This document shows positions 4,379 through 64,000 of a stretch of 64,000 nt of DNA, in pieces (the stretch's first letter is position 1; each line of letters starts with the position of its first letter). Under the pieces are notes generated by a model. That model saw only the letters and a program-made list of their open reading frames with translations, ran no database searches and was not told where the DNA came from. This DNA is from an uncultured Myxococcales bacterium (GTDB lineage Bacteria; Myxococcota_A; Polyangia; Fen-1088), in NCBI GenBank assembly GCA_964589215.1, contig CAZPUH010000492.1:10221-74220 (forward strand). The letters are read 5' to 3'. Made by a program: the position numbers and the translations under genes.

Positions 4379-4389
4379 GATTCTACGCG
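4379..4389 (-). promoter_or_regulatory. class I motif variant (CGCGTAGAATC)
   Basis: One mismatch to the 11-mer. Its TAG is the stop codon of 4383..4607. No start codon lies within 10 nt downstream. Confidence 0.35.
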
Positions 4390-5583: not shown

Positions 5584-5594
5584 GATACTACGCG
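5584..5594 (-). promoter_or_regulatory. class I promoter-like motif CGCGTAGTATC
   Basis: Exact 11-mer. TAGTAT ends 7 nt before ATG 5577. Its TAG is the stop codon of 5588..6529. Confidence 0.6.
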
Positions 5595-6691: not shown

Positions 6692-6702
6692 GATACTACG
6701 CG
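6692..6702 (-). promoter_or_regulatory. class I promoter-like motif CGCGTAGTATC
   Basis: Exact 11-mer, 7 nt before GTG 6685 and about 160 nt upstream of the Mu-F-like gene. Confidence 0.55.
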
Positions 6703-14972: not shown

Positions 14973-15000
14973 AGTCTAGCTTCTCCGTAATTGTTGTAAA
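14973..15000 (-). promoter_or_regulatory. class III sigma70-like promoter TTTACA-N16-TAGACT
   Basis: AT-rich island. Shares ATTTACAACAaTTACGGA with the copies at 24027 and 49710. An approximately 65-nt leader runs to the SD of the DUF932 gene. Confidence 0.6.
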
Positions 15001-17682: not shown

Positions 17683-17693
17683 GATACTACGCG
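17683..17693 (-). promoter_or_regulatory. class I promoter-like motif CGCGTAGTATC
   Basis: Exact 11-mer. TAGTAT ends 9 nt before ATG 17674. Confidence 0.6.
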
Positions 17694-18456: not shown

Positions 18457-19956
18457 CTACCCCGTCGTGAACGCGGGCGGCATCGGTGCCAAGGAATCGG
18501 CCAGCGCAATCGGCGGCACCACCGCGCCCGCCACGCCCGCGGGGACCGCCAGCGGCGAGACCGGCAGCAGCAATGGCGGGACCCGCGCCTCCACGACGCC
18601 CCACGCCACGTTGCGCCACCACGCGGCAACGTAGGCATCCTTTCTGAGCCCGTAGTCGGGCATCCAGGCGTGCTCGGCAGCGTCCAGGGCGACGATTACA
18701 GGCGCGTTCGCCGGCGCCCCGCTGTCATCCCCCTCGAGGACCATGTTCCGCAGCCTGCCGCCCCGGCCATCGCGAACCGCGAGCACCCAGCTGGCGGCCG
18801 CGCGCGCCGCCTGGCGGAAGTCCGCCGCCCAGGCGTCGACCGACCCGAAGGCTTCGACCGCCGCGGCCGTGAACGCCGGGCCAGGTCCGGCGGCGCCCGC
18901 GCCGCGCGCCAGCCCCTCGAAGTAGAGTTCGTGCAGGACGACCGCGTTGTGGACGGCCGGCAGGCGCCGGCGGGCGGCATCCGCGGGGCTGGGCCCCGCC
19001 TCCCGGCCCAGGAATTCGCCCACGGTGAAGTCCAGCGCAGTGAACGGCACTCGGCGGCCCACCCGTTTGATCGGCGCGGGTCCGTAGGCCATCCCCTGGC
19101 CCACCAGCATGTCCTCAACCGCCAGGAGCTTGGCCAGCGCGGCGGGCCGGTCGGCGTAGGTCTCCCGCCACCGCGAGCCGGGGTCCAGCCAGCAGGCGAA
19201 CGTCTCCGCCCAGTCCTCGTCGGGGTGCTTCTGGCCGTAGTGCGCCAACGGCGCGCTGGCGTTCTGCGCGATGTAGGACACGTAGGCATCGCTGGCGGCC
19301 GGGTCGGGCGTGAAGTCGTCCTGGTAGGGCGCCGCGAAGTTCCCGAAGGTCTCCCCCCACTTGATCCGCTGGTACAGCAGGTAGGCGTAGCCCAGGGCGT
19401 GTCCGAGCTCGTGACGCAGGATGCGCAGGACGTCGTCGACCGAGTACCGCAGGAAGTTGTCGTTCACCAGCGCCCAAAGGGCGTCGCTCGCCAGGTACCA
19501 GGGCAGGTTGATCGAGACCGCCTGATCGGCCGTCCAGAAGTCGGAGTCGCCCACGTACCAGGACGGCCGCCAGGTGATGCCGCGATCCTGCAGCTCCCCC
19601 TCCACCTGGGCGATGGCTTCGGCCAGCTTTCCGGTCGGCTCGAGCAACGGCAGGTCCCGCACCGGGGTGACCAGCAGCTGGTGGGCTTCCGCCGCTGGCA
19701 GCCCGCCGGTTGACCGCGCGCTGGCGCCAGCCACCGCGTCGAGCTCGGCCATCTCAACGACGTAGCGCCGATAGAGCTCCAGATGGTCGGCTAGCACCCG
19801 GTCGGAGATCCCGACCAGACCGCCCGTCAGGAGCGCCGTGAAATCACGCGGCGCGGCCGGTGCCGGCGCCTGCTTTTCCTCGGCGGCCCAGCGGCGCGCC
19901 ATCGCGGGGTGTGTCGCCCACATCCATCTTCGTTGCTTGGCGCTCTGCCATGGCAT
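18457..19956 (-). CDS. zinc metallopeptidase-like (HELGH) domain fused to a Fe/Mn-SOD-like domain
   Basis: RHELGHALGY. C-terminal FGSVDAWAADF...ASWVLAV...LDAAEHAWMPDYGLRKDAYVAAWWRNVAWGVV parallels the SOD pattern FGS.D..F..GSGW.WL..D.WEHAYY..R..Y...W.vvNW. Confidence 0.6.
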   Translation of the reverse strand: MPWQSAKQRRWMWATHPAMARRWAAEEKQAPAPAAPRDFTALLTGGLVGISDRVLADHLELYRRYVVEMAELDAVAGASARSTGGLPAAEAHQLLVTPVRDLPLLEPTGKLAEAIAQVEGELQDRGITWRPSWYVGDSDFWTADQAVSINLPWYLASDALWALVNDNFLRYSVDDVLRILRHELGHALGYAYLLYQRIKWGETFGNFAAPYQDDFTPDPAASDAYVSYIAQNASAPLAHYGQKHPDEDWAETFACWLDPGSRWRETYADRPAALAKLLAVEDMLVGQGMAYGPAPIKRVGRRVPFTALDFTVGEFLGREAGPSPADAARRRLPAVHNAVVLHELYFEGLARGAGAAGPGPAFTAAAVEAFGSVDAWAADFRQAARAAASWVLAVRDGRGGRLRNMVLEGDDSGAPANAPVIVALDAAEHAWMPDYGLRKDAYVAAWWRNVAWGVVEARVPPLLLPVSPLAVPAGVAGAVVPPIALADSLAPMPPAFTTG

Positions 19957-20199: not shown

Positions 20200-20210
20200 G
20201 ATACTACGCG
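20200..20210 (-). promoter_or_regulatory. class I promoter-like motif CGCGTAGTATC
   Basis: Exact 11-mer. TAGTAT ends 6 nt before ATG 20194. Confidence 0.6.
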
Positions 20211-20237: not shown

Positions 20238-20735
20238 TCACGACGACCTCGTGACCGCGGTCAAGCCGACGCTCCTCGAGCGGCGTCTGCCGCAGCAGAC
20301 GGATCCGCCCTTCGGTCCGCTCCCAGTCTGCCGGCCACAGCATCCACGCGTAATCGGCGCTGTCGCCGCCGGACGCTTCGATTGACGCAGGAACTCGAAC
20401 GCCCACGTGTACGGCGGGTTGCTCAGCACCACCGCGACGTCAGGATCGGGCGCGTCGGTGACGTGCAGGAAATTCTCGATCCGCGCGTTGGCGCCGCACA
20501 GCCTGACTAACTCCGACCGTTCCTCCTCCCGAATCTCGAACGCGCGCCACTCCGGTGGCCGGTTGCCGGGCGACGCGTCCACGGTACGGATGATCGCGCC
20601 ATTGCCCGCGGCCGGCTCGACCCACGGGCCATGACGCGTCGGTCGCCATGCCTCGAGCAGACGTCGCACGCACCAGCTGGGCGTCGTGTAGAAGTCCTCT
20701 GGCTCTCGCGGGCCACCGCGGCCGGCGGCGCTCAC
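20238..20735 (-). CDS. DNA methyltransferase (NPPY class), apparently frame-disrupted after motif IV
   Basis: DFYTTP, VEPAAGNGAI (motif I), LSNPPY (motif IV). After AFEFLRQS this frame becomes R/C/G-rich nonsense, while the -1 frame (track ORF 20212..20406) reads protein-like. GTGA overlap at 20735. Confidence 0.55.
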   Translation of the reverse strand: MSAAGRGGPREPEDFYTTPSWCVRRLLEAWRPTRHGPWVEPAAGNGAIIRTVDASPGNRPPEWRAFEIREEERSELVRLCGANARIENFLHVTDAPDPDVAVVLSNPPYTWAFEFLRQSKRPAATAPITRGCCGRQTGSGPKGGSVCCGRRRSRSVGLTAVTRSS

Positions 20736-21457
20736 GAGTTGGCGACCTCGATCAGGACGCGTGCGTGGCAGACATCCGGCTCTCCCGGCGCCGGCAACGG
20801 GCACCAGCAGGCAAGGCTCCGACCCCTGAGCTCGCGCCGCGCCTGCGCGACCAGGTCCGGCATCCCTTCGAGCAATGCCCGGAACGCCTCCACGGCCGCC
20901 TCGCGCGTCGGATACCGCTCACAGACCCGGAACGGGTTGCCCCAGCGTCCCGGCCGGCTGACCACAATCGTGCCTTCAGGCTTCCGCCAGCCCTTCGCGC
21001 GCGAGAGCTGGATGCGCTTCGGCGGCGGCAACTGTGGGATCTCGACGGTCGCCCACGCCAGCATCCGCTTCCAGTAGGCGCCGTTCAGCGCGGGCGGGTC
21101 GAGCACCTGCGACCGACCGATCCACTTGTACCAGCGCACGCGCACCGGCGGACCGCCGCCGAGCAACTGCGGCTTGATCTCGAACTGCCAGCCGGTCTCG
21201 TTGCCGTCGTCGTCGACGTTGCAGTGCGGACAGCCGCCGTCACTGTCGTAGCAGTAGACGTGCATTCGAAAGCGGTCATTCTCAAAGTCGACGCCGTAGC
21301 CGTACCTCCCGCCAAGCGCACCGCCGCCCAGCTCGCCCAGACCAGCGCGCGCGAGTCGTTCCGTCAGGTCGCGCAGGTCGCGGGCGACGACGCCTTCCAG
21401 ATCTTCGCCCAGATCATCCGCGGTTGGCGCCGTGATGATGCGCAGGTCGTCCGGCAT
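20732..21457 (-). CDS. DUF4326 domain protein with N-terminal extension
   Basis: SRPGRWGNPF...LRGRSLACWCP...CHARVL is the DUF4326 pattern. Confidence 0.7.
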   Translation of the reverse strand: MPDDLRIITAPTADDLGEDLEGVVARDLRDLTERLARAGLGELGGGALGGRYGYGVDFENDRFRMHVYCYDSDGGCPHCNVDDDGNETGWQFEIKPQLLGGGPPVRVRWYKWIGRSQVLDPPALNGAYWKRMLAWATVEIPQLPPPKRIQLSRAKGWRKPEGTIVVSRPGRWGNPFRVCERYPTREAAVEAFRALLEGMPDLVAQARRELRGRSLACWCPLPAPGEPDVCHARVLIEVANS

Positions 21458-21463
21458 TCCGGA

Positions 21464-21474
21464 GATACTACGCG
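21464..21474 (-). promoter_or_regulatory. class I promoter-like motif CGCGTAGTATC
   Basis: Exact 11-mer. TAGTAT ends 7 nt before ATG 21457. Its TAG is the stop codon of 21468..22223. Confidence 0.6.
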
Positions 21475-22223
21475 GCGAGCTTCGGGTACGGCAGGCTCTT
21501 CGGCAGACAGCGGCGCAAGCTGCGGTCGAGAGCCCAGGCGTATTTGAGGTTTCCCGGGTGGCGCACCGGTCGCGTCAGGCGGTCGATGTCGCCGAGTTCG
21601 CCAGTCCCCCCGTAGCCGCGCAGCAGGCGAGAGACGTACTCGTGCCCGCGCTGCCGGTGCACCAGCTTCTGAATCGCCCGCCTCGGCAACACGCGCCCGT
21701 CCGGCAGCAAGCGCACGATCTCAGCCTTGCTCCGGCCGAGATAGACGCCATTCGTGGCCTGGTACACCGTGCCGACGTGGCCCGGGTGCACGAGCTCGCC
21801 CACGGCTGTCAGACGCGGCATGGGGTCCGAGAACGACACGATCCCCGCGACCTCGCGCCGGAGTTCTTCGAAGCATCGCGCGATAAACCAGGACTCCCCG
21901 TTTGCCGGCACATCGTCGAGCAACACGAGCCGGCCGAGTTCGGTGGCCTCGGTCGCCTTGACCGGAAAGACCTTCGTCAGCGTGACGTCATTCACCGGAT
22001 GAGAGAACACCGCCACACCCACCAGCTGTCCCGCGCGATAGAGCCCGAACCGGAACCGCGCGGCCGGAAAGCTACCAGAGTAGTGATGCCGGATGACGAA
22101 CGCCTTGGGCGTGTCGTCGTCTTCGATGCGGCCCACCTCATAGCGCCGCGTTTCGATCGGCTCACCGGCCGGACGGTACGACCCGCGCCGATCGCGCCAG
22201 CGCTGATTTACCGGTGTAATCAC
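21468..22223 (-). CDS. GNAT-fold, Mom-like protein (putative base-modification enzyme)
   Basis: FVIRHHYSGSFP, LVGVAVFSHP, ELGRLVLLDDVPANGESWF, SFSDP...GHVGTVYQATNGVYLG. This recalls the Mom-family/GNAT pattern from memory and is not verified. GTGA overlap start at 22223. Confidence 0.45.
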   Translation of the reverse strand: MITPVNQRWRDRRGSYRPAGEPIETRRYEVGRIEDDDTPKAFVIRHHYSGSFPAARFRFGLYRAGQLVGVAVFSHPVNDVTLTKVFPVKATEATELGRLVLLDDVPANGESWFIARCFEELRREVAGIVSFSDPMPRLTAVGELVHPGHVGTVYQATNGVYLGRSKAEIVRLLPDGRVLPRRAIQKLVHRQRGHEYVSRLLRGYGGTGELGDIDRLTRPVRHPGNLKYAWALDRSLRRCLPKSLPYPKLAA

Positions 22224-22426
22224 GGCGGCGCGGCGGTCTCCGTACCGCACTCGCCGCAGATGAATACGATCCGGATCAGATCGAGCGCCATCGGCTTGCG
22301 GCAACGTGGACACGGGCGCGGCGCTGGCGCCTTCGGACGTCCAACCCAGCCGGAGGGCAGAACCGGCGGCACATCATCGAGCTCACGCAGCCCTTCGCAA
22401 TCGCTGCATTCTCCCGTCGCGCACAT
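22220..22426 (-). CDS. zinc-ribbon small protein
   Basis: CSDC...CPRC...CGEC Cys pairs. 68 aa. Confidence 0.55.
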   Translation of the reverse strand: MCATGECSDCEGLRELDDVPPVLPSGWVGRPKAPAPRPCPRCRKPMALDLIRIVFICGECGTETAAPP

Positions 22427-23658: not shown

Positions 23659-24020
23659 AGCGCACCGTCCTGCTGTCGCTGCGCGCGATACTTCCGCATG
23701 AGCTCCTCGCCGGTCTCATGCTCGATCGGCGTCGTCTCCTCTTCGTCCGTCGCGACCGGAACGGCTTCGACCTCGGCGATCGGTGTACGTGCGCGGACGG
23801 CCGACAGCACCAGATCCCATGTCTCTTTACTCGGGGCGTTAACCTTCGCCTTCTTCGCAAAGATCGCTCGCTCCGGCACCGATAACGCGGCAAGAAACTC
23901 CGCGATGATCCGGTTTTGCTCGCTGGTCTCGCCGGTCGGAACGACCGACAAAATGGCCAGCACCTTGCGGCTGCGGGCCGCCTCTTCGTGCGGATTGCGT
24001 TTGCTGTTCGTCATCATCAT
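23655..24020 (-). CDS. hypothetical protein (candidate early gene)
   Basis: 121 aa, MMMTNSKRNPHEE... ATG lies 6 nt after the class III -10. Confidence 0.65.
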   Translation of the reverse strand: MMMTNSKRNPHEEAARSRKVLAILSVVPTGETSEQNRIIAEFLAALSVPERAIFAKKAKVNAPSKETWDLVLSAVRARTPIAEVEAVPVATDEEETTPIEHETGEELMRKYRAQRQQDGAL

Positions 24021-24026
24021 GAGACG

Positions 24027-24055
24027 AGCTTAGCGCCGTCCGTAAGTGTTGTAAA
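24027..24055 (-). promoter_or_regulatory. class III sigma70-like promoter TTTACA-N17-TAAGCT, leaderless
   Basis: The -10 ends 6 nt before ATG 24020. Shares a 19-nt block with the other two copies. Confidence 0.65.
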
Positions 24056-24978: not shown

Positions 24979-25247
24979 GTTCCACTGTACGGGCCCGCGA
25001 CCCGTCCCTTTCGCTCGGCGAAGAACTGCAGGATCTTCTCCGCTCGGTCAGCTGCGCGTCGTTCCGGATCTGCCTGCGCGATTTTCAGGATGCCGAGCAC
25101 CGCGTGGAACAGCGCCTCGCCCAGATTCTCCGGCGACGGCTCGGTCAGCAGCGCGGACGCGCGCGCGAAGCTGTGCTGGGCGGTTTCTAGCGCGTGCCGG
25201 AGTCGCTCGCCTGCTCGCCTGGTGTCGGCCGCCTTCGTTCCGTTCAC
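24975..25247 (-). CDS. hypothetical protein
   Basis: 90 aa. GTGA overlap with the Gp37/Gp68 stop. Confidence 0.5.
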   Translation of the reverse strand: MNGTKAADTRRAGERLRHALETAQHSFARASALLTEPSPENLGEALFHAVLGILKIAQADPERRAADRAEKILQFFAERKGRVAGPYSGT

Positions 25248-26386
25248 GGCGTCCTCGGCGTCGGAAACTCGCGCACGCGGAGTCCGCGAGGCCACTCGCG
25301 CAGATCGCCACCGTGACTGTCCATGAGTCTGATGCGCACCGGCGCACCCTGATGCTCCTCGCGAAAGCCGTTGATGTTCTCGTCGATCTGGTACATCTGT
25401 CCGTCCGGGCGTTCCGGTGGCCAGCCGTTCTCCTCGCCGTCCTCGAAGGCGCACGGCGCCAGCCGCCCGTCGTTCGGCACGACCACGTTGGCGCCCATCT
25501 GCTTCACGAACACCGCCACGCCGGCCGCCTTGCACTGCGCGACCAGCAGCTCCGCCCACGCTGGCTCGAAGCGGCGCGCGCGCTGACCGCTCTCGCCGCC
25601 CACGACCACCCAGTCGAGTTCGGGAGCGAAGCCCGAGCGAATCCACTTCGGGTTACCGCGCTCGCGGTCAATCTCAAGCCAGCTTCGCAGGTCCAGCTTG
25701 CCCAGCAGAGGTTCGGCGCTCACCCAGCGCACTGCCGCCGGCGTCGCCAGCAGGGCGGGGATGCGATCGTTTGCGGTCTCCTGGTTCTCGGCGGAGACGC
25801 CTAGGTGCACGTTCGGGAGCGGCCACTCCGGCGGATCCTCGATGAGAGGGTCCCCTCTTCCGGGCTCGAACCCGTCCTTGCTGTCGTGCTTCGTCAGGAA
25901 GGCGTTGACCTCGGGAACGCCGAACATCTCGGTTACGCAGGCGTGAATGCCGTCTCCGACCATGTCCACGCGCGACGCCCACTCGAACCACTTCCGCATC
26001 CGCTCCGCCCGCTTCGTCAGGATCTGATGCGTGTGCTGCTGCGTCGCCGCCATCACTCCGAAGCAGGCCGCGATCCATTCGTTCGACACCCAGTCGCCGA
26101 ACAGGTCCGTCATGTCGCACCAGAAGATTTTCGCTGGCCGCTTGCGTGCGAGCACTGACACCAGCTTCTTCGGATTCAGCGATAGGACAGGCATGTGCTC
26201 GCCTCGCTGCTCCTGGAACTGCGGCAGCCCGAAGCGAGGTTGCATGCGCGACGCGTAGCAGTTCTTGCAGCCGGGCGAGATCTTCTCGCAGTAGTGCCCC
26301 GATCGCGCAGCGCCCGGCGCGCTCGCGGGTCTCGCCTCGATGGGGTTGACGGTGAAATTGGTCCACTCGATGAGGGTGCGATTCAT
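25244..26386 (-). CDS. phage Gp37/Gp68 family protein
   Basis: MNRTLIEWTNFTVNP...CEKISPGCKNCYA is the family N-terminal signature. 380 aa. Confidence 0.75.
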   Translation of the reverse strand: MNRTLIEWTNFTVNPIEARPASAPGAARSGHYCEKISPGCKNCYASRMQPRFGLPQFQEQRGEHMPVLSLNPKKLVSVLARKRPAKIFWCDMTDLFGDWVSNEWIAACFGVMAATQQHTHQILTKRAERMRKWFEWASRVDMVGDGIHACVTEMFGVPEVNAFLTKHDSKDGFEPGRGDPLIEDPPEWPLPNVHLGVSAENQETANDRIPALLATPAAVRWVSAEPLLGKLDLRSWLEIDRERGNPKWIRSGFAPELDWVVVGGESGQRARRFEPAWAELLVAQCKAAGVAVFVKQMGANVVVPNDGRLAPCAFEDGEENGWPPERPDGQMYQIDENINGFREEHQGAPVRIRLMDSHGGDLREWPRGLRVREFPTPRTP

Positions 26387-27100: not shown

Positions 27101-27111
27101 GATACTACGCG
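27101..27111 (-). promoter_or_regulatory. class I promoter-like motif CGCGTAGTATC
   Basis: Exact 11-mer. ATG 27089 is 12 nt downstream (GTG 27098 is 3 nt downstream). Confidence 0.55.
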
Positions 27112-30005: not shown

Positions 30006-30016
30006 GATACTACGCG
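30006..30016 (-). promoter_or_regulatory. class I promoter-like motif CGCGTAGTATC
   Basis: Exact 11-mer. TAGTAT ends 7 nt before ATG 29999. Confidence 0.6.
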
Positions 30017-30029
30017 GCAACGGACGATT

Positions 30030-32036
30030 TCAGACCGGAGAACCGACCGGATAGTCTTCGAGCTCGGTCCCAAAGACCTCCTGGTCGTAAAAATCCAGGC
30101 TCGGCATCTGAATTCGCTGGATCAGGGTCAACCAACGGCGATCATTCTTGATGTCGTTCGAGTAGTCGTCGGATGACCATGCCGTGGCGAACGCCAGCGC
30201 ACGGGCCTCGGGGCCATCGAGCCGCGACATCCAGGTGCCGGTCGCCATCTTCTTGATCTTCGCCCGGACGGCTGCCTCTTCGCTGTTCTTCTGAGTGCAG
30301 ACGTCGTCCATGAACAGATAGTCCGCCTTTGACCCGATGCCCTCGGTCAGCACCCCGCGCGCCTGGATCGTCGGATCGGTGCCGTGCCCCTGGCGCTCGA
30401 CGAAGGCGTCTTGGGTGTCCCACTTTTGGCCGCGCCGGATGTGAGGGAACACCCGGCGGTATTCGTAGCTCTCGATCAGGCTCTTGATGGACGCCACGCG
30501 CAGCTTGGCCATGTCGTCGTTCGCGCAGACGACTTTGATGCGGACCTGTGGGTTCCGGCCCACGAGATAGGCGGCCAGCGGCACCAGAAAGCCGGTGTTG
30601 TGCACGATCACGTCGCTGGTCAGATACGTGTGATGCCCGTCGACTTCCATCCCAAAGGTCGGTTGGACCCCCATGTCACGGATGGTGACGATTTCGTCCC
30701 AGAAGATCTCAGGAGCCGTCAGCTTCAAGAGATAGGCGTTGCCCTCTGCTTCCGCCGCCAAGCGGACAACGCCGCGCGCCGTGCCCATCTGACGGTGGTT
30801 TTTCGTTTTGGCCTGATCGAGCGATACGCCCGTGTTGACCTTGTGCCAATGCGCCGTCCGCTTCAGGTATTTGCGGTACCCCAGCGGGATGATGTCGTTG
30901 TTCGTCAGGCGTCCGGTAGTTCGCGGCCCGAAGGTGGCCAGCTTCTGTCCCTTTTCTCCAGGCACGGGAACACGTTCGCGGAACAGGTCGAGCCACGGCC
31001 GACGTACTCGAAGTCGCCACGACGCGTGATGTCGCCCCAGGTACTTTCCGTTCTTCGGGAAAACGACGGAAACAATGCCCAGCCGCAACAGCAGCGACTG
31101 GACATCATCGAGGAGACCACGATTCACCGAATAGAGTTCGACGTTCCCCTTTGCGTCCACGTGCCCATCGCAGGCCACGTACGCGCCGATGTATCTGGCG
31201 ATCTGGTCAACGGGGGCAGAGAAGATTTTCGGGGGCGTTACCTTCGTCCAGGCGGTGCAGTGTTCGTGGGCTTGTTGCTCCATGAACCAGCTCCTGCATC
31301 CGCCGAGAACTCTCACGCCAGGCGTTCTCGGAGGATAGTTGAAGCGGGTGCTTCTGAAGCCTGCTCTCTCTGCCGCCGCTGCAATCGCATCGAGGAGATG
31401 GGGATCGCCATTCGCGACTTCGATTCCGGTTTGCTTTACCGATCCATCTCCGACGATGAATCCGAACAACTCCGGCTCGCCATCTCGTAGGCGATGCGTC
31501 CCCATATTCGGCAGGTTGTTGGCTACCGCGACGCTTCTTCCAATGGCGAGATCGGCTGCCTTCACCCAGCCGTTCACCGTCAGGAATGGATGCTCTTCCG
31601 TGACGTCTATCTCGCGCCCGCTGCGCAGCCCGATGCGGATGACCCGTCTATCTCCGTTGCCGAATACGCGCGCCCAGGCCGGCGCAAATCGGCCGGTCTC
31701 AGCGTCATAGGCGACGACGCTGACCATCAGCCCACATAGGTTGCCGATCGCGGCCGTCGTTCCGTCAGAAAGTTGGACCTTCGAGTGCGCGGGCTGGCAT
31801 TTACCGGAACTGAACGGCGCCATGATCATCGCGTGCTTTCCGCGGTTCCAGGCGTGGTTGACGTGCACGATCCAGGCGCGGTGCAGGTAGTGCAGTTCGA
31901 CGGGCCCACCGTCCTCGTCCTTGGCGCAAAACTCGATGAAGGCAGCGAGATTCACCCGCGCCTTCCGGATCTGTTCTTGGACCAGGCGCTTGGCGACGAT
32001 CAGGTCTTCGATGTTCGCGACGGCGGTAGTGGCCAT
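30030..32036 (-). CDS. terL: terminase large subunit, ATPase (N-terminal) half, interrupted by an intein
   Basis: From ATG 32036. Extein: Walker A MAPFSSGK|T (split by the intein), Walker B ADYLFMDDV, then ATAWSS. Extein total is 267 aa with no nuclease domain. Confidence 0.75.
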   Translation of the reverse strand: MATTAVANIEDLIVAKRLVQEQIRKARVNLAAFIEFCAKDEDGGPVELHYLHRAWIVHVNHAWNRGKHAMIMAPFSSGKCQPAHSKVQLSDGTTAAIGNLCGLMVSVVAYDAETGRFAPAWARVFGNGDRRVIRIGLRSGREIDVTEEHPFLTVNGWVKAADLAIGRSVAVANNLPNMGTHRLRDGEPELFGFIVGDGSVKQTGIEVANGDPHLLDAIAAAAERAGFRSTRFNYPPRTPGVRVLGGCRSWFMEQQAHEHCTAWTKVTPPKIFSAPVDQIARYIGAYVACDGHVDAKGNVELYSVNRGLLDDVQSLLLRLGIVSVVFPKNGKYLGRHHASWRLRVRRPWLDLFRERVPVPGEKGQKLATFGPRTTGRLTNNDIIPLGYRKYLKRTAHWHKVNTGVSLDQAKTKNHRQMGTARGVVRLAAEAEGNAYLLKLTAPEIFWDEIVTIRDMGVQPTFGMEVDGHHTYLTSDVIVHNTGFLVPLAAYLVGRNPQVRIKVVCANDDMAKLRVASIKSLIESYEYRRVFPHIRRGQKWDTQDAFVERQGHGTDPTIQARGVLTEGIGSKADYLFMDDVCTQKNSEEAAVRAKIKKMATGTWMSRLDGPEARALAFATAWSSDDYSNDIKNDRRWLTLIQRIQMPSLDFYDQEVFGTELEDYPVGSPV
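30597..31799 (-). mobile_element. intein with LAGLIDADG homing endonuclease in the TerL P-loop
   Basis: 401 aa. Starts at Cys (codon 31799..31797) right after GK and ends HN, followed by Thr (30596..30594). Block B is VTEEHPF. LAGLIDADG motifs are LFGFIVGDGSV and IGAYVACDGHV. C-terminal end is SDVIVHN. Confidence 0.8.
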
Positions 32037-32058: not shown

Positions 32059-32069
32059 CGCGTAGTATC
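32059..32069 (+). promoter_or_regulatory. class I promoter-like motif CGCGTAGTATC (only + strand copy)
   Basis: Exact 11-mer on the top strand. TAGTAT ends 7 nt before ATG 32076. Confidence 0.6.
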
Positions 32070-32075
32070 GAGCAC

Positions 32076-32441
32076 ATGACGTATGTGACCCTGACGCCGA
32101 AGACCAACCGGATCACGGTCCGCACGACGCTCCGCCCCAGCGCCGCCTACGCCCACCGCGACTTCGCCGTCAGCATCCAACCGGTGCACGCCGGCCTGAC
32201 GTTCACCGTGTGGGGTCGGACCGAGCCTGGACGGGCGAAGTTCAGGCCATGCACCGAGCTCGGCGACGACTTCCTCAGCCGGGTCGAGGAGGTCGTGGTT
32301 GGCGCGGGACTGGATGAACTATCCAAGCTGGCGCTCGGTCGGACCCAGGACGACGCCACCGTGAAGCGGATCATTGACGTGGTCCGCGATCTGCTCGAGT
32401 GCACGGCGGCGCCCGAGCAGAAGCTGGCGGACGCCGCCTAG
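32076..32441 (+). CDS. hypothetical protein (plus strand)
   Basis: 121 aa with very high GC3. Divergent from TerL across a 39-bp gap. Confidence 0.65.
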   Translation: MTYVTLTPKTNRITVRTTLRPSAAYAHRDFAVSIQPVHAGLTFTVWGRTEPGRAKFRPCTELGDDFLSRVEEVVVGAGLDELSKLALGRTQDDATVKRIIDVVRDLLECTAAPEQKLADAA

Positions 32442-33900: not shown

Positions 33901-34183
33901 GTTGCGGCCCCTCCTGCTGTCGCTTCGCACTCAACGCCTGCTGGGCGAGCGACGCGACATACCGCTTCGCCGCCTGGTCCCAGTAGAGCGCCATCGACTG
34001 AATGAACGCGTCGCGCCTCTGGCCCATTTGCAGCGACCGAACCGCCATCGCGCAGGCGGCCGCGTCGAATTCCAGCGCCGCCAACGCCTGGGCCTGCGGA
34101 TCTGCGTTCCAACTGGCGGCGCGCGCGGCCGCCCCCGGCAGCTCCTGGCCTTCCCCCTGTGATCCGTCGTCGTCTAAAAACAT
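33887..34183 (-). CDS. hypothetical protein
   Basis: 98 aa. A TAGGAT hexamer lies 8 nt upstream of the ATG. Confidence 0.55.
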   Translation of the reverse strand: MFLDDDGSQGEGQELPGAAARAASWNADPQAQALAALEFDAAACAMAVRSLQMGQRRDAFIQSMALYWDQAAKRYVASLAQQALSAKRQQEGPQHEQG

Positions 34184-35317: not shown

Positions 35318-35328
35318 GATACTACGCG
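35318..35328 (-). promoter_or_regulatory. class I promoter-like motif CGCGTAGTATC
   Basis: Exact 11-mer. TAGTAT ends 8 nt before ATG 35310. Confidence 0.6.
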
Positions 35329-37785: not shown

Positions 37786-38336
37786 GCCTCCGATACTACG
37801 CGGCGCCCGCGCCAGGATACCCTCTCGGCGGCAGCACGTTCCTCCCAGCCAGCGCGCTCCTCCGGCGACAGTGCATCCCAGGCGGCCCGCGCCCGGTTCG
37901 CGAGCCGCATCCTGACCATGTTCTGGCCGGTCCAATCGAGCTCCACGTACCACCAGCTCTTGCCTCCCTCCCGGCCGTCGATCCCCTTGTGGATTTGCTC
38001 GCACAGGCAGGCACCAACGTCGCCCACGTCGTAGCGCTTTCGGTCCGACAGGTGGGCGAACTCCCGTCGCCCGCGGCATCGCCGGTGTTCAATCCCCAGG
38101 AGCCGCTGCAGGTCGGCGTCCAGCTTCATCTCGCATCCGCGCGCGTGGCAGAACGCCATGAACCCCGCCTCCCGCGGGCGGCGTTCGTGCTTCGTTTTCT
38201 TTTCGCGAACGGGCTTGGGGTGGGCGAAGTCAGCCGTCAGTGCGGCCGACTTCTTCAGTTGGCGCCGCTGAACGCCCCACTCCTTTCGCCGGAGCGGCTT
38301 CGGCTCCTTCTTCCGTCGCTCCGGCTTCTGGATCAC
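37782..38336 (-). CDS. hypothetical Cys/His-rich basic protein (NinG/DUF968-like?)
   Basis: 184 aa with FMAFCHARGC...C.GRREFAHL. The family call is tentative. Confidence 0.5.
   Translation of the reverse strand: MIQKPERRKKEPKPLRRKEWGVQRRQLKKSAALTADFAHPKPVREKKTKHERRPREAGFMAFCHARGCEMKLDADLQRLLGIEHRRCRGRREFAHLSDRKRYDVGDVGACLCEQIHKGIDGREGGKSWWYVELDWTGQNMVRMRLANRARAAWDALSPEERAGWEERAAAERVSWRGRRVVSEA
37792..37802 (-). promoter_or_regulatory. class I promoter-like motif CGCGTAGTATC
   Basis: Exact 11-mer inside the 3' end of 37782..38336 (coding RRVVSEA). TAGTAT ends 7 nt before ATG 37785. Confidence 0.6.
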
Positions 38337-39603: not shown

Positions 39604-39614
39604 GATACTACGCG
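39604..39614 (-). promoter_or_regulatory. class I promoter-like motif CGCGTAGTATC
   Basis: Exact 11-mer. TAGTAT ends 6 nt before ATG 39598. Confidence 0.6.
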
Positions 39615-41217: not shown

Positions 41218-41228
41218 GATACTACGCG
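41218..41228 (-). promoter_or_regulatory. class I promoter-like motif CGCGTAGTATC
   Basis: Exact 11-mer. TAGTAT ends 10 nt before ATG 41208. Confidence 0.55.
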
Positions 41229-42874: not shown

Positions 42875-42885
42875 GATACTACGCG
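42875..42885 (-). promoter_or_regulatory. class I promoter-like motif CGCGTAGTATC
   Basis: Exact 11-mer. TAGTAT ends 9 nt before TTG 42866. Confidence 0.55.
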
Positions 42886-47483: not shown

Positions 47484-48640
47484 TCCTTGACCCGCAGGTC
47501 CATCAGCTTTTCGTTGGTCTCGGTCGTCACCGCTCCGGCCGCCTCAAGGGCCTCGGCAACAGCTTCGATCGCTTTCTTCTTCCCACCCTTTGGCGTCTTC
47601 GCCGCCACCGCGTCGTCGACCGCCGACATCCCGATCTTCATGCAGCCCAGGATTTCGTCTTCTGTCAGGTGCTCGCGAAGCACTGGCAGCCCCAGCTTCG
47701 GTGATACTACGCGCCGGGGGCTGTCAATGAAGCGCAGCTCCCGGCCGTCACCGTCCGGCAGCGCGCCGCCGGCCGCGCGCACCCGCTTCTGGACGGCCTC
47801 GTGCAGGCTCTTGCCCAGCCGCTCGACCGACTTCCAGCGCCGCCAGATAGAGACCACCTCGCTGTCCGACAGGTCGCCCAAGCCAGCCTCGACCTTCGCC
47901 GCCATGGCCTCGCCGCCGAACACCAGGACGTCCCGCCGCGCGGTCGTCGCGAGCGCCGGGCAGGCCGCCGCGCGCGGGCAGATCGAGCAGTGGCCCCCCG
48001 GGTGGTAGACGCCGTCCCACTGCACGACGCGCTCCCGAACCTCGTCCAGCCACTGCCAAAGATTCTCTCGCGTCATCCGCTCTACGCGCTCGGTCTGGCC
48101 GGACCGCATCCAGCCGACGAACCCGTCCACCTTCTCGACTGACGGGTAGTTTCCCAGCACCAGCGCCGAGTACGCGTGCACTTGATGCTGGTAGTCCCGG
48201 TCCATCCGGCCGAACTTCCAGTCACCGTGGGCCGCCATCAGCCGCGCCACCGCCAGCGCGTCGATGTGCCCGCTCAGCTCCAGGACGACTCCGGGCGCGA
48301 TCTCGAAGCTCGCCTCCAGGTAGACCTCGCTCTGGGCCGGCCGCAGCCACTCGCGCACGGACTTCCAGACCTTCAGCCCGATGAATGCCGTGATCTTTAG
48401 GTCATCGACATCCACCGACCAGCGACGCGCGATCGGTTCCAGATCGACCTCGTAGAGCGTGGTGGCGTCGGCGTCCACCAGCGCCGCCATGACAGCGTGC
48501 CCGGCTGACCCGCCGTCGCCGGCGTCGCTCACCGGGTCGACCAGAACGCCGCCCTCTTGCACCGGACGAGCCGAGCCGGGGCAGGTAAAGGCCGCCGGCA
48601 TCGAGCTCGCCCGAATCCGGAAAACGACGCGCTCGCTCAC
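47480..48640 (-). CDS. PD-(D/E)XK (Cas4/RecB-like) nuclease with 4-Cys cluster
   Basis: GHIDAL...DWKFG, QHQVHAY (QxxxY). Cys pattern is C(19)...C-x2-C-x5-C (HCSICPRAAAC). Confidence 0.65.
   Translation of the reverse strand: MSERVVFRIRASSMPAAFTCPGSARPVQEGGVLVDPVSDAGDGGSAGHAVMAALVDADATTLYEVDLEPIARRWSVDVDDLKITAFIGLKVWKSVREWLRPAQSEVYLEASFEIAPGVVLELSGHIDALAVARLMAAHGDWKFGRMDRDYQHQVHAYSALVLGNYPSVEKVDGFVGWMRSGQTERVERMTRENLWQWLDEVRERVVQWDGVYHPGGHCSICPRAAACPALATTARRDVLVFGGEAMAAKVEAGLGDLSDSEVVSIWRRWKSVERLGKSLHEAVQKRVRAAGGALPDGDGRELRFIDSPRRVVSPKLGLPVLREHLTEDEILGCMKIGMSAVDDAVAAKTPKGGKKKAIEAVAEALEAAGAVTTETNEKLMDLRVKE
47703..47713 (-). promoter_or_regulatory. class I motif copy internal to the nuclease gene
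   Basis: Exact 11-mer (coding SPRRVVSP), 220 nt upstream of recombinase start 47483. No start codon lies within 10 nt. Confidence 0.4.
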
Positions 48641-48957
48641 GACGCCGCCGGGATCTCGAACGCCTTCTGGAGAGTCGCCAGGTGGATCCAGACGTTGCCG
48701 CTGGGTCCCTTCTTTACGGGCGCGGGCCCGCCAACCAACTGCGGAATCGCCACCGTGTCGCCGTCCAGGTGCCGGCGCACGCGGTCATAGATGCTGGTGG
48801 CAGCTCGATTGACGGCGCGGGCGGCGGCGGCCACAGACACGTAACCGTCGCCGTCCATCTTGGCCGCCTCCGCCGCGTCGGGCTTTCGCCCGCGTGGGTT
48901 ACCGCCGCCGTGCTTCTTCTTCCTGATCTTCTTCGGTTTCTTCTGGGGCTTCGCCAT
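48637..48957 (-). CDS. HTH DNA-binding protein with Lys-rich N-terminus
   Basis: MAKPQKKPKKIRKKKHGG...YVSVAAAARAVNRAATSIYDRVRR. The class I motif ends 7 nt upstream. Confidence 0.6.
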   Translation of the reverse strand: MAKPQKKPKKIRKKKHGGGNPRGRKPDAAEAAKMDGDGYVSVAAAARAVNRAATSIYDRVRRHLDGDTVAIPQLVGGPAPVKKGPSGNVWIHLATLQKAFEIPAAS

Positions 48958-48963
48958 GCGGCA

Positions 48964-48974
48964 GATACTACGCG
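48964..48974 (-). promoter_or_regulatory. class I promoter-like motif CGCGTAGTATC
   Basis: Exact 11-mer. TAGTAT ends 7 nt before ATG 48957. Its TAG is the stop codon of 48968..49630. Confidence 0.6.
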
Positions 48975-49630
48975 CGCCGCCCCTCCGAGCCCTCGCCGAG
49001 CATGATGCGGATGTGCGAGACCACCGGATCGCGGCCGACAGCCTCCACGAACTGCCGCAGGATCGAGCGAGCCGTGAGCGGTGGCAGCTTGGCGCGGCGG
49101 GCCAGCGCGGACAAATCGGCGTTCCGCGCCGGGCCCATCGCCGCGCGCACCAGCTTCTGCCCGCGAGGCTCGAGCTTCTTCAGCAGCATGGCCGTGCGGA
49201 TCACGCGCTCTCGCTCGCCGCGCATCCCGATCTCTGGCGCGTCATCAGCGGACGCCGCGAACCGCTCCTCGCTCCGCTCGCCCTCCCCGCCCGTCCACGT
49301 CAGGGACTTCGTCCGGAACAGGTTGCTCGTGTCCTCCTTCGTCCTGCCACCGATCGCTCCGTCTGAAATCGTCAGCACCGTCGCCTGACGACGAAGCGCA
49401 AGCTTCGTCCGGCGGAACGCCGCCGTGCAGGCGACGCTGAACGGCTTGTCGAACGTCCGGTGACCGTACCGCTCCCGCCAATCTGCAGCCACCACGTACG
49501 CGACCTGCAGCGCCTCCTCGCGGTGTTCCCGGCGATATTTGGAGCTCACGTACCTGGCCACCTCGAGCGGCTCGACGGTGATGCCCCTCTTTACGGCCGA
49601 CTTCGAATCGACGACAGTTTCTGACTGCAT
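48968..49630 (-). CDS. sigma-70-family-like (ECF-sized) factor, putative
   Basis: Region-2-like EEALQVAYVVAADWRERYG...FSVACTAAFRRTKLALRRQ. Region-4-like LEPRGQKLVRAAMGPARNADLSALARRAKLPPLTARSILRQ. GAGGAGG SD. Confidence 0.45.
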   Translation of the reverse strand: MQSETVVDSKSAVKRGITVEPLEVARYVSSKYRREHREEALQVAYVVAADWRERYGHRTFDKPFSVACTAAFRRTKLALRRQATVLTISDGAIGGRTKEDTSNLFRTKSLTWTGGEGERSEERFAASADDAPEIGMRGERERVIRTAMLLKKLEPRGQKLVRAAMGPARNADLSALARRAKLPPLTARSILRQFVEAVGRDPVVSHIRIMLGEGSEGRRA

Positions 49631-49659
49631 GCGGACCTCCTCTTGGCGGTGGGGGTTCT

Positions 49660-49701
49660 GAAGAGGAGCGGGGTCGGATTCGTCCGGCCCCGCTCCTCTT
49701 C
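49660..49701 (-). promoter_or_regulatory. 19-bp stem-loop at the predicted 5' end of the sigma-like mRNA
   Basis: GAAGAGGAGCGGGGTCGGA-TTCG-TCCGGCCCCGCTCCTCTTC on the top strand. There is one non-Watson-Crick position. It starts about 8 nt after the class III -10. Confidence 0.5.
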
Positions 49702-49709
49702 TCTCCCGG

Positions 49710-49738
49710 AGCCTAGCGGCGTCCGTAAGTGTTGTAAA
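49710..49738 (-). promoter_or_regulatory. class III sigma70-like promoter TTTACA-N17-TAGGCT
   Basis: AT-rich island upstream of the sigma-like gene. Shares a 19-nt block with 14973 and 24027. Confidence 0.6.
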
Positions 49739-49744
49739 TAAAAT

Positions 49745-50275
49745 TCAACCGGGGGCCGCGATTCTCGCGTAATGCGCGAGCAACAGAGCGTCGGCCCTGC
49801 CCAGCAGCAGCGCGCCGCGCGGTGTTCGCAGCTGGCCAGCCACAGAAGGATAAAGCTCAGTGGCGCGCACCAAGGCGGACTCGTCTCTCTTCGGCAGATC
49901 GCGTAGCAGCGCGCGCGTCCAGGTGACCGGGCTGACGAGTCGATGAGTCACCATCTTCGCCTCCAGAATCCCCAGCCACACGCCGTAATCGCGCCCGAAG
50001 CCGAAGGCGCCGGATATTCCCTGCTTCGGCATGGCATGCACGTCCTCGATCACGGCATCCAGGCCGCCCTCGCCGAGGACGATGGCCGCGGAGATGATGC
50101 TCACCATGCCGGCTCGATTGCAGCGGCGTCTGATCTTTGGGTTGCCGCCCTTCGTCTTGGCGCCCTTGCGGTCGACCGTCGTCGTGAACGGCGTGTCCCA
50201 AAACGTCACCCTGTCGCCTGGACGAATCAGCGCCACCGCCCCCGTCAGCCCAGGGTCGATCCCCAGCCAGCTCAC
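49745..50275 (-). CDS. RuvC-like Holliday junction resolvase
   Basis: VSWLGIDPGLTGAVALI... and VIEDVHAMPKQG...FGFGRDYG. GTGA overlap start at 50275. Confidence 0.65.
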   Translation of the reverse strand: MSWLGIDPGLTGAVALIRPGDRVTFWDTPFTTTVDRKGAKTKGGNPKIRRRCNRAGMVSIISAAIVLGEGGLDAVIEDVHAMPKQGISGAFGFGRDYGVWLGILEAKMVTHRLVSPVTWTRALLRDLPKRDESALVRATELYPSVAGQLRTPRGALLLGRADALLLAHYARIAAPG

Positions 50276-50583
50276 AGAGGCCACCAGCGCGGCGTGAGTT
50301 CCCGGCGCTCTTCGACCAGCCCGAGGATCGTGCCGTCCAGGAACGACGCCGCTACGTTCGCGATGATGCTGTCGCCGGCCGTCCAGATCCCGGTCAGCTC
50401 TCGATGCCTCAGCATCATGTCGAGCGAGACCGCCATCTCGTGCCGGCGCAGCTTTCGCACGTAGTCGTTCCAAAGCCAGACCGCCTCGTCCCACTGCTGA
50501 CGCGCGCTTGCCTCGACCGGAGGCGTTGCTTGTGGCTGTGGCGGCTGCGCGCCGGGATGATGGTTCCGTGCTGCCCAGGTCAT
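50272..50583 (-). CDS. hypothetical protein
   Basis: 103 aa. The class I motif ends 7 nt upstream. Confidence 0.6.
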   Translation of the reverse strand: MTWAARNHHPGAQPPQPQATPPVEASARQQWDEAVWLWNDYVRKLRRHEMAVSLDMMLRHRELTGIWTAGDSIIANVAASFLDGTILGLVEERRELTPRWWPL

Positions 50584-50589: not shown

Positions 50590-50600
50590 GATACTACGCG
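50590..50600 (-). promoter_or_regulatory. class I promoter-like motif CGCGTAGTATC
   Basis: Exact 11-mer. TAGTAT ends 7 nt before ATG 50583. It is preceded by the hairpin GCCGGGC-AGT-GCCCGGC. Confidence 0.6.
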
Positions 50601-60950: not shown

Positions 60951-61382
60951 CTATCTGGCGGCGCCCGCCACGTTCCCCGTGCCGGAGCCGCCGCATGTCG
61001 TGACCGGAATGCACACCGGGTCGAAGACGTTCCCATCCGGGTTGGGCGCGATGCGACATGGACACCCGGCCGCCTCTCCGCCACGGCCTCCCTCGCCACC
61101 GCTTCCAGCTGCCTGGGCGCCACCGGCGCCGGCATCCATGCCCGACGGCGCGCTCCCGCTGCTCCCGGCACCGCCAGCGCTGAGACTCAGCCCGCGACGT
61201 CCACCGGCAGCTTCGGCGCCCGCTCCGCCGGCCGCCGAGCGACCGGCATCCGAGGAGGACGCGCTAACGTCTCCGCAGCCAGCCGCGCTCAGCGCCAAGA
61301 CCGCCAGGGCCGCCAGAAGCACCACCAGCGCCACCCCCGTACGATTCGGGTTCTTTCGGATCAAATGGTCGATGTCGAGCAT
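60951..61382 (-). CDS. Gly/Ala-rich lipoprotein
   Basis: From ATG 61382: MLDIDHLIRKNPNRTGVALVVLLAALAVLALSAAGC. The class I motif ends 7 nt upstream. Confidence 0.6.
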   Translation of the reverse strand: MLDIDHLIRKNPNRTGVALVVLLAALAVLALSAAGCGDVSASSSDAGRSAAGGAGAEAAGGRRGLSLSAGGAGSSGSAPSGMDAGAGGAQAAGSGGEGGRGGEAAGCPCRIAPNPDGNVFDPVCIPVTTCGGSGTGNVAGAAR

Positions 61383-61388: not shown

Positions 61389-61399
61389 GATACTACGCG
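61389..61399 (-). promoter_or_regulatory. class I promoter-like motif CGCGTAGTATC
   Basis: Exact 11-mer. TAGTAT ends 7 nt before ATG 61382. It lies inside the tail module. Confidence 0.6.
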
Positions 61400-63060: not shown

Positions 63061-64000
63061 CTACCCGAAGCTGATGTCCTGCAGCCGCAGTCGGATGATC
63101 GTGCTGTTGGTGGCGGGCACGATGTCGCCGACCGGAACGGGCAGGCTCGCGTCGGTCACGATAACGCCGGGCACCGCGCGCGCGGCCGCGATCAGGTCGG
63201 AGCGGCGCAGCGGCTGGCCCGGCTGATTGAACTGACTCATGGCCACGGCGGTCGCGGCCACCGCGGCGCTGGCGGCCTTGGTGTCGATCCCGGACTCGAA
63301 GTCGAGATCGTACTGAACCGCCTCGAACACCACCGTCCCGCCCGACACGAAGACCGGGATACCGGCCGAGCGATACCAGAGCAGGTTGTCCTTCACTGCC
63401 TGAATCATCAGCGAGGACGCGTTGCCGTTGGCGTCGCCGATCACGAGCTCGACCGCGCCAGCCGGCAGCGCGGTGCCGGGATTCACGATCTCGAACGCTG
63501 TCGCCACCGCCACCCCGGACAGGTACTGCTTTGTCTGGCTGGTGTTGGCGGGGTCCGACGTCTGGGCCGCCAGCTGGATCGCCGCCAGGATGCCGCGCCG
63601 GATGGACAGGAAGAAGACCAGCGCGCGCCCCCGGAACTGCGCGTCGCTCTCGGCCAGCGTGCCGCCAGCGGCGGGCGCGGGGTTGGTGACCGTGATCGTC
63701 GGGTCGAAGGTGCTGTCCACGAAGGCGGTCAGCGTGTTCACCTGGATGTTCTGGTCCGGGCCCACGACGGCCGCGAAGGCGGAGATCGGCGTGGTCACAC
63801 CCTTCACCAGGTCGGTGGGCCCGAACGGCACGTCGGTCTGGAGGGAGAAGATCGAGCCGCTGGCCGTGCTCATCCGCGTGCCCGCCGCGATCGTGCCACC
63901 GCCCGCGCCGAATGTCGGGCGCCGCAGGACGACATCCACCGTGGCGGCCGCGGCCGGGTTCCTTGTGATCCCAAAGTTGTCGTACACCTTCCGGTCGAGC
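63061..64000 (-). CDS. baseplate J-like protein (N-terminus beyond window edge)
   Basis: The frame stays open to position 64000 (..LDRKVYDNFGITRNPAAAATVDVVLRR...AESDAQFRGRALVFFLSIRRG). The architecture resembles gpJ/gp47-family proteins. Confidence 0.55.
   Translation of the reverse strand, partial: LDRKVYDNFGITRNPAAAATVDVVLRRPTFGAGGGTIAAGTRMSTASGSIFSLQTDVPFGPTDLVKGVTTPISAFAAVVGPDQNIQVNTLTAFVDSTFDPTITVTNPAPAAGGTLAESDAQFRGRALVFFLSIRRGILAAIQLAAQTSDPANTSQTKQYLSGVAVATAFEIVNPGTALPAGAVELVIGDANGNASSLMIQAVKDNLLWYRSAGIPVFVSGGTVVFEAVQYDLDFESGIDTKAASAAVAATAVAMSQFNQPGQPLRRSDLIAAARAVPGVIVTDASLPVPVGDIVPATNSTIIRLRLQDISFG

Follow-up and report, generated by a model that had tools for sequence, protein, structure and literature searches.

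In phages phiEco32 and 7-11, early genes, that of the phage sigma factor (gp36-type) among them, are transcribed from host sigma-70 promoters, and the phage factor then reads a single, highly conserved element of 9 to 12 bp that recurs upstream of the middle and late genes (PMC4331800). Phage T4 relies on gp55, a sigma-family protein that recognizes a single -10-type late element without a -35 element (PMC2988020, PMC7892883), and in phage SPO1 early transcription by host sigma A is followed by the action of successive phage sigma factors, gp28 and gp33-34 (PMC13401047). Repeated sites of another kind are the stoperators of Cluster A mycobacteriophages, asymmetric sites of about 13 bp that are present in dozens of identical copies, are oriented uniformly with respect to transcription, and often lie at gene ends, with variants that track phage lineages (PMC9283540, PMC6550527). 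The stretch analyzed here, 64,000 nucleotides (nt) of phage DNA in an assembly from an uncultured Myxococcales bacterium (contig CAZPUH010000492.1, positions 10,221 to 74,220; hereafter the window), carries many copies of an 11-bp element, CGCGTAGTATC, which we call the class I motif, and a gene, P0001, whose product is a candidate sigma factor that may read it. The concept of a phage sigma cascade is well established, and the finding therefore extends known biology and does not overturn it. What is new here is the protein family, the motif, and the proposed leaderless architecture, while the kind of system is already known.

Like phiEco32 and 7-11, the window has a host-type promoter before its sigma-like gene and a short, conserved, single element repeated ahead of genes. 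It differs from them in that no sequence relationship is detectable (P0001 has no PHROGs match), the motif sequence is different, the element lies directly against the start codon, which implies that the mRNAs are leaderless, no anti-sigma factor was recognized, and the host is of high GC content. The late promoters of T4 (TATAAATA) resemble class I sites in having a -10-type element without a -35 element. Unlike P0001, however, gp55 lacks a sigma4 domain and requires gp33 and the sliding clamp, and a comparison against PHROGs detected no similarity. We accordingly rejected a T4 gp55-type late sigma factor as a description of P0001, which has no PHROGs match and whose model includes a sigma4-like helix-turn-helix (HTH) domain. 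As in SPO1, the phage encodes two sigma-like proteins. The SPO1 factors, in contrast, read bipartite promoters, no homology to them was detected, and the order of action here is one that we infer.

A putative sigma factor below annotation thresholds

Gene P0001 (48968..49630, minus strand) begins with ATG and encodes 220 aa. Its GC content at third codon positions (GC3 = 0.86) is typical of the coding strand of the window, which has an overall GC content of 67% and carries nearly all of its genes on the minus strand. An exhaustive HMMER search, covering 1.8 billion representative proteins, recovered 12 relatives at 29 to 47% identity, giving a family of 13, whereas word-indexed searches, queried with either P0001 or the family profile, gave nothing beyond P0001 and two known members. 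The family consensus contains two stretches, DDxxQEAALxALExRERYG....NPFxxxxxxAFRxTxLAxxR and LxxxExRLxxxA.......LRxLAxRxKLxRxRAxxVLRxF, which we read as the patterns of regions 2.1 to 2.4 and 4.1 to 4.2, respectively, of extracytoplasmic function (ECF) sigma factors. Within the DDxxQEA-like stretch, Q42 is invariant across the family.

Sigma models rank at the top when family members are scanned singly, and several members align colinearly with both the sigma2 and sigma4 portions. TIGR02937 (sigma70-ECF) matches five of the 13 members with a best E value of 1.2e-4 and scores of 18 to 22 bits, against a cut-off of 42.9; the alignments are colinear and span positions 5-155 (P0009), 24-156 (P0008), and also 16-131, of 165. 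TIGR02989 matches three members, including P0012 over positions 13-154 of 158, with a score of 19.7 bits against a cut-off of 124.55, and Pfam Sigma70_r2 matches four of the 13 (best E = 0.0019). In P0008, P0009, P0007, and P0012, the colinear alignments extend over almost the whole sigma model, including both domains. An hhalign comparison of the family with Escherichia coli RpoE (the query was 100% identical to 1OR7) aligned region 2.1/2.2 with the DDxxQEA stretch and nothing else, and the E value of 0.014 to 0.027 is weak. This profile-profile test is itself weak because the RpoE protein search yielded only close RpoE orthologs. A comparison of the family profile with PDB sequences gave no sigma match.

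Structure prediction points in the same direction as the profile matches. AlphaFold2 run on the family alignment gave a model with a mean predicted local distance difference test (pLDDT) score of 75.8 and two confident helical domains, a sigma2-like domain at about residues 20-83 and a sigma4-like HTH domain at about 139-210, with a disordered linker (86-135) between them. The single P0001 sequence gave an unusable model (pLDDT 40). In a Foldseek search of the PDB, about 48 of the top 50 matches were sigma chains, including SigB, sigma32, SigE, SigH, SigL, AlgU, sigma70, and sigma28 (best probability, 0.97; best E, 0.04). The matches in BFVD were mostly phage sigma or ECF proteins with a best E value of 0.0046, and the best probabilities overall were 0.97 to 1.0. 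The Foldseek TM-scores are low (0.2 to 0.33) because the relative orientation of the two domains is undefined in the model.

Four results count against a sigma identity. P0001 alone has no match at E <= 10 in Pfam or PHROGs, it has none among the NCBIfam sigma models, every sigma match within its family falls below the curated cut-offs, and no Foldseek match of its model reaches E < 1e-3. The preliminary description of this locus had reported sigma-70 region-2-like and region-4-like segments in the protein. In the single sequence they are undetectable, and the claim is supported at the level of the family, by subthreshold TIGR02937 and Pfam matches and by the predicted fold. The profile check against sigma and ECF models that it proposed is likewise split, with no match for P0001 itself and subthreshold matches for its family. 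On balance, these sequence and model comparisons indicate that P0001 is probably a remote, ECF-like member of the sigma-70 family, with sigma2 and sigma4 domains and without region 3.

P0001 shares with ECF (group IV) sigma factors, such as E. coli RpoE and Mycobacterium tuberculosis SigH, the sigma2-linker-sigma4 layout and a length of about 200 aa, and its family shows full-length, if subthreshold, TIGR02937 and TIGR02989 matches and structural matches to SigE, SigH, SigL, and AlgU. Unlike in ECF sigma factors, the family scores below every curated cut-off, the class I sites lack the bipartite pattern of a -35 (AAC) and a -10 (CGT) element, and the promoter of P0001 is of the host type (TTTACA-N17-TAnnnT) and does not look autoregulated. 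Sigma factors of uncultured phages can evidently lie under all standard annotation thresholds, as the family amounts to 13 clusters among 1.8 billion and has no Pfam or PHROGs match for P0001. Two members of the family, P0007 and P0009, have an N-terminal HTH extension fused to the sigma-like protein, and three others (P0010, P0012, and P0013) carry a C-terminal DUF2924 domain.

Class I sites lie at a fixed distance from start codons

The window contains 17 exact copies of CGCGTAGTATC and one copy with a single mismatch, where 0.53 would be expected, in agreement with the earlier count of approximately 18 sites. None of 100 shuffles reached 18 copies, and 17 of the 18 are on the minus strand. 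Sites with two mismatches number 11 beyond these 18, against 13.8 expected, and because this is chance level, the motif appears to be all-or-none. Positions flanking the 11 bp are uninformative. We also considered a -35 element at variable spacing before the class I sites and rejected it, as no enriched word was found. Neither the motif nor the sample accessions are mentioned in the searchable literature.

The copies are tied to gene starts. In 13 of the 18, the ATG of an open reading frame (ORF) of at least 40 codons lies 5 to 9 nt downstream, compared with 3.5% of random positions (P ~1e-15), and the number rises to 15 or 16 when GTG and TTG are included. Four of five motif-linked starts agree with independent gene calls in the stretch that those calls cover. 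Orientation follows the gene: the sole plus-strand copy (32059..32069) stands 6 nt before the ATG of a plus-strand gene (32076-32441), and outside the window, genes in reverse orientation are preceded by a reversed copy.

All remaining copies are on the minus strand. The copy at 61389..61399 lies 6 nt before the ATG of an ORF at 60951-61382, that at 50590..50600, upstream of P0001, lies 6 nt before the ATG of a 103-aa gene, and that at 48964..48974 overlaps the P0001 stop codon and lies 6 nt before the ATG of a 106-aa gene. Farther along, copies are found at 42875..42885 (8 nt before the TTG of a DnaB-like helicase ORF), 41218..41228 (9 nt before the ATG of a 528-aa gene), 39604..39614 (5 nt, ATG, 78 aa), 37792..37802 (6 nt, ATG, 338 aa), 35318..35328 (7 nt, ATG, 91 aa), 30006..30016 (6 nt, ATG, 119 aa), 21464..21474 (6 nt before the ATG of a DUF4326 gene of 241 aa), 20200..20210 (5 nt, ATG, 74 aa), 17683..17693 (8 nt, ATG, 137 aa), and 5584..5594 (6 nt, ATG, 113 aa). 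The copy at 6692..6702 stands 6 nt before the GTG of a 48-codon ORF ahead of a MuF-like gene, and that at 27101..27111 is followed by a 63- to 66-aa ORF with two possible starts, a GTG after 2 nt and an ATG after 11 nt. Two copies have no start codon behind them. One (47703..47713) is inside a PD-(D/E)XK nuclease gene and recurs in the related contig L003 (7982) at identical codons (PRRVVSP). It may act as an internal promoter, or its conservation may reflect the peptide. The other is the one-mismatch variant CGCGTAGAATC at 4379..4389, which has no start codon nearby. The same variant (TAGAAT) recurs outside the window 7 nt before a gene start (L023 12448), and the 8.8 kb beyond window position 1 contain four further exact copies.

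The gap between motif and start codon is too short for a Shine-Dalgarno (SD) sequence, and we rejected the motif itself as an SD because it lacks a purine run. Of the 18 sites, 15 or 16 present a TAnnnT core 5 to 9 nt upstream of a start codon, in the orientation of the gene and without an SD. The same geometry is seen in promoters of this phage and its relatives that do have a -35 element (TTTACA, TAGACG, or TTGACG at 17 to 18 nt), in which TAnnnT lies 5 to 7 nt before the start, and many TG-TAnnnT sites in the phage share this spacing. Class I sites are therefore read, from sequence and position, as very probable -10-type promoters for leaderless mRNAs, with TAGTAT as the hexamer and no -35 element. 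CGCG would occupy the extended -10 position, and transcripts of about 20 genes would begin at the start codon or 1 to 2 bases before it. Leaderless transcription seems, from the same spacing, to be general in this phage and its host. TAnnnT, often after TG, also occurs 6 to 8 nt before minus-strand starts at 34183, 10944, 8672, 6529, 59316, and 60917, some of which additionally have TTGACG or TAGACG at 17 to 18 nt.

The sigma-like gene has a conserved host-type promoter

The P0001 gene was described earlier as one of three in the window preceded by a TTTACA-type promoter, and a pattern scan bears this out: TTTACA-N16/17-TAnnnT occurs at exactly three sites (49738, 24055, and 15000), all on the minus strand. 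The promoter of P0001 (49709..49741) comprises TTTACA (49738-49733), a 17-nt spacer, and TAGGCT (49715-49710) and lies within the block TTTACAACACTTACGGA. The second (24027..24055; TTTACAACACTTACGGA..TAAGCT) stands 6 nt before an ATG at 24020 and would give a leaderless mRNA, while in the third case (14973..15000; TTTACAACAATTACGGA..TAGACT) a leader of about 60 nt with an SD separates the promoter from the ATG (14906) of a DUF932 gene. Common to all three is a block of 17 nt, TTTACAACA(C/A)TTACGGA, which takes in the spacer and is kept in all relatives. This block contains a TTTAC...TT(T)AC direct repeat, which suggests an additional operator overlapping the early promoters.

TAnnnT is a pattern typical of -10 hexamers in high-GC genomes. 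The word canonical, which the preliminary description had used for the P0001 promoter, needs qualification, as TAGGCT matches TATAAT at only three of six positions and the promoter is not listed by a scan tuned to E. coli. Its conservation, on the other hand, is clear: TTTACAAC(A/G)TTTAC.. followed by TAnnnT at 16 to 17 nt stands ahead of the homologous gene in seven relatives. In some of the seven, the promoter precedes a small extra ORF ahead of the sigma-like gene. The order of elements in relatives is a T-rich tract, the promoter, usually an A-run, a GC-rich hairpin, an SD, and the ATG. The T-rich tract corresponds in the window to a short hairpin and T-run at the end of the adjacent resolvase gene (49746..49758, minus strand), with T-runs at the equivalent place in relatives, and is possibly a terminator or an UP-like T-tract.

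Downstream of the promoter, the 5' untranslated region (UTR) contains a very stable predicted hairpin (49660..49701, minus strand) with a folding free energy of -41.9 kcal/mol (z = -5.4). It is retained in eight relatives, and 7 of 10 predicted pairs show changes on both sides. Candidate roles are RNA stability, translational control, and an antisense terminator. Read on the opposite strand, the hairpin resembles an intrinsic terminator. The SD, AAGAGGAGG (49636..49644, minus strand), lies 5 nt before the ATG, is conserved in relatives, and deserves the earlier label strong. Overall, these comparisons provide strong evidence for a real, conserved, primary-sigma-type promoter ahead of the sigma-like gene. 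Because promoter, 5' UTR, and SD are all conserved in relatives, the locus fits the earlier proposal of early expression by host RNA polymerase.

The motif accompanies the gene in related phages

Homolog-bearing contigs were recovered for nine family members. The relatives are syntenic: a gene for a Holliday junction resolvase or RusA is followed by the early promoter, an optional ORF of 94 to 119 aa, the sigma-like gene, a gene for an HTH protein of about 106 aa, a PD-(D/E)XK nuclease gene, and, further on, a dnaB gene. In L003, L005, L008, and L009, the SD and ATG behind the early promoter open this 94- to 119-aa ORF, which overlaps the start of the sigma-like gene.

All 10 of 10 homolog-bearing contigs carry GCGTA(G/A/C)TATC-type sites on the gene strand, 5 to 9 nt before start codons. 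The variant is CGCGTAGTATC in the window and L003, CGCGTAATATC in L005, L008, L009, L019, and L021, GCGCGTACTATCC in L010, and CGCCTACTAT in L022, and L020 is mixed, with one TAGTAT copy and one TAATAT copy. In every relative the sigma-like gene has a copy at its 3' end, whichever reading frame the copy falls in. In most relatives this copy encodes a C-terminal R-V-(I/V)-S. The window copy (48974..48964) is read one frame off from this, and its TAG (48970-48968) serves as the P0001 stop codon. Since the copy is read in different frames, the conserved feature is the DNA element and not the peptide.

More distant phages lack both components. Eight IMG/VR phages with a nuclease 30 to 33% identical have no homolog of the sigma-like gene within 10 kb and no motif. 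The co-occurrence of gene and motif supports a link between them, yet it is confounded by shared ancestry. Further searches yielded no additional relatives: a nuclease alignment search of GTDB genomes and metagenome contigs found nothing, a scan of viral contigs for the early-promoter pattern gave only chance matches in low-GC contigs, and a gene-end motif scan of metagenome contigs and an exact 53-mer scan of genome contigs gave only chance low-GC matches. Repeats in L014 (450-1341) and L018 (42-300) were considered as analogous promoters and rejected. In these distant IMG/VR relatives, the repeats are long tandem arrays with periods of 81 and 15 bp, respectively, and have no relation to the class I motif.

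Candidate readers of the class I motif

We tentatively favor P0001 as the reader of the class I sites, although we would put its chances somewhat short of even. Host RNA polymerase would transcribe the gene from its TTTACA-N17-TAnnnT promoter, so that the gene would belong to one of three early units of transcription in the window, and the mRNA would combine 5' UTR structure with a strong SD. The protein would then direct core polymerase to the class I sites and turn on the replication and middle genes, beginning with the HTH gene, which follows the stop codon of P0001 directly. We regard such a cascade as plausible. A dedicated phage factor is favored because the motif is all-or-none, in contrast to the variable, TG-preceded host-type -10 elements of the same phage. 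P0001 is favored as that factor because it is sigma-like, has a conserved early-type promoter, has a class I copy right behind it, and has a precedent in phiEco32 and 7-11. It is also the only sigma or RNA polymerase candidate among the approximately 86 window proteins scanned with Pfam.

A number of observations weigh against this assignment. The -35 zone of the class I sites contains no enriched word, and the absence of a -35 element is an unusual combination with a sigma4-like domain in P0001. The preliminary description had placed the first class I motif at the P0001 stop codon. The stop codon TAG does lie inside a copy, but two others, at 50590 and 61389, are upstream of the gene. The motif is nearly constant while the sigma-like proteins are 29 to 46% identical, which would also fit a conserved host factor, and L020 and L052 mix variants, so that there is no strict covariation of protein and motif. 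A second sigma-like gene, whose product has a Sigma70_r4 match above the cut-off, is present in this phage, and the TAG stop of that gene, too, lies inside a CGCGTAGTATC copy (L023 14218). Finally, the analysis covered the phage up to window position 64000, with approximately 14 kb beyond it left outside.

The strongest competitor, in our view unlikely, is the holoenzyme of the host primary sigma factor, which would read the class I sites as -10-only promoters. P0001 would then serve another promoter class, autoregulate the TTTACAAC..TTTACGG promoters, or be a plain HTH regulator. The variants TAGTAT, TAATAT, and TACTAT are all compatible with TAnnnT and differ between phages solely at the third position, the one least read; the motif is conserved while the sigma-like proteins diverge to about 30% identity; and the phage has many other -10-only, leaderless-type promoters. 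In some high-GC bacteria, such promoters and leaderless mRNAs are both common and well documented (PMC4633059). Seventeen identical 11-mers without an excess of degenerate copies are, however, unlike host promoters, and the other host-type -10 elements of the phage vary and are preceded by TG rather than CGCG. The absence of the motif from the eight distant relatives without a sigma-like gene also argues against a host factor, although phylogeny confounds this comparison.

The second sigma-like protein, the main complication, is a rather improbable reader but a serious alternative or additional factor. In this alternative, it would read class I and P0001 would serve another promoter class. Its gene (L023:13481-14224, 247 aa) lies approximately 1.5 to 2.2 kb beyond window position 1, on the same strand as the window genes. 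The protein scores 27.6 bits against Pfam Sigma70_r4, above the cut-off of 24.1 (E = 2e-6), and aligns with TIGR02937 over both halves (E = 8.8e-4). It has a region-2-like N terminus, a Cys/His cluster, and then an RpoD-like region 4.2 helix, TRERVRQIQ, and it had no tblastn match in 50,697 phage records. Besides these sigma matches and the CGCGTAGTATC copy at its stop codon, this alternative is favored by the contig that encodes a 57%-identical homolog, which contains GCGTAGTATC three times and GCGTACTATC twice. Its TRERVRQIQ helix, however, is like those of primary sigma factors, which read TTGACA-type -35 elements, and class I sites have none. The gene is also located among late and structural genes, behind a class I-type variant promoter, and no host-type promoter was seen before it. 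Because of this location behind a class I-type promoter, the second protein looks like a product of class I transcription and not its cause. Its primary-sigma-like -35 helix and late-gene location lead us to infer that it reads the -35-containing late promoters and is itself expressed from class I.

The motif may, least probably of all, be no promoter but an oriented binding site (stoperator-like or a roadblock) or an RNA processing or translation signal, a reading we consider very unlikely: although the motif is asymmetric, sharp, mostly intergenic, and in a single orientation, differs by single bases between related phages as stoperators do (PMC9283540, PMC6550527), stands 5 to 9 nt from start codons, which is also the SD window, and is followed by a conserved gene for a small HTH protein, this fixed spacing with a TAnnnT core at the distance found in the -35/-10 promoters of the phage speaks for a promoter, there is no SD-like purine run and by inspection no anti-SD complementarity, and no repressor or integrase family was found among the window proteins scanned. 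Stoperators in particular were rejected: the class I sites share their orientation bias and superficially resemble them in pattern, but stoperators are repressor sites without fixed start-codon spacing. The remaining probability goes to a reader that we have not seen.

If P0001 is the reader, as we tentatively prefer, the phage carries a compact orthogonal pair of sigma factor and promoter, in which a single 11-bp element without a -35 element operates in a high-GC host. Such a pair would be useful for studying promoter specification by the sigma2 domain alone and is a possible part for synthetic biology, and the phage would clearly exemplify a virus that organizes much of its gene expression around leaderless mRNAs. 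A more ambitious picture combines several claims and, taken as a whole, is doubtful. The ORFan-like family of P0001 would represent a new branch of sigma factors whose holoenzyme requires just an 11-bp element at -16 to -6 and begins transcription at the start codon itself, with a uniform leaderless regulon of at least about 20 genes and a hard-wired cascade. The order would be host sigma factor, first sigma-like protein, class I genes, including that for the second sigma-like protein, and then the -35-containing late promoters. Both sigma-like genes would be hard-wired in this scheme because each has its stop codon built into a promoter copy.

Neighboring genes and other features

Upstream of P0001 on the minus strand lies a Holliday junction resolvase gene (49745-50275; PHROG 1770, E = 2.7e-23), which is preceded by the 103-aa gene (50272-50583) that has a class I motif 6 nt before its ATG. 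The gene directly behind P0001 and the first behind the stop-codon copy (48637..48957, minus strand) encodes 106 aa with a Lys/Arg-rich basic N-terminal tail and a resolvase-type HTH, the latter seen as a weak match to PDB profiles (E = 0.037). It occupies this position in every relative. The protein has no family match and no Cys residues, and hence no zinc motif of the HxxxCxxC type. Its role may be to regulate the early promoters or to act as a cofactor. No anti-sigma gene was recognized next to P0001, the downstream gene being that for the HTH protein.

The phage is distant from those described. The best matches of its portal protein, to Ralstonia and Komagataeibacter phages, are only 23 to 26% identical, and megablast and tblastn against the 50,697 phage records gave no match for the region or P0001. 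The window contains no tRNA genes or Rfam matches. The middle region includes genes for a Mom-like protein (21468-22250), the DUF4326 protein (20732-21457), a DUF5131 protein (25244-26386), and a Gad2-like protein (PF26128; 44855-45568), all on the minus strand, which we would guess form a set for DNA modification and antidefense. Also on the minus strand, a 668-aa protein (30030-32036) contains an intein with a LAGLIDADG endonuclease domain, and a 488-aa protein (18457-19923) combines a putative zinc metallopeptidase with an iron/manganese superoxide dismutase C-terminal domain, an unusual fusion.

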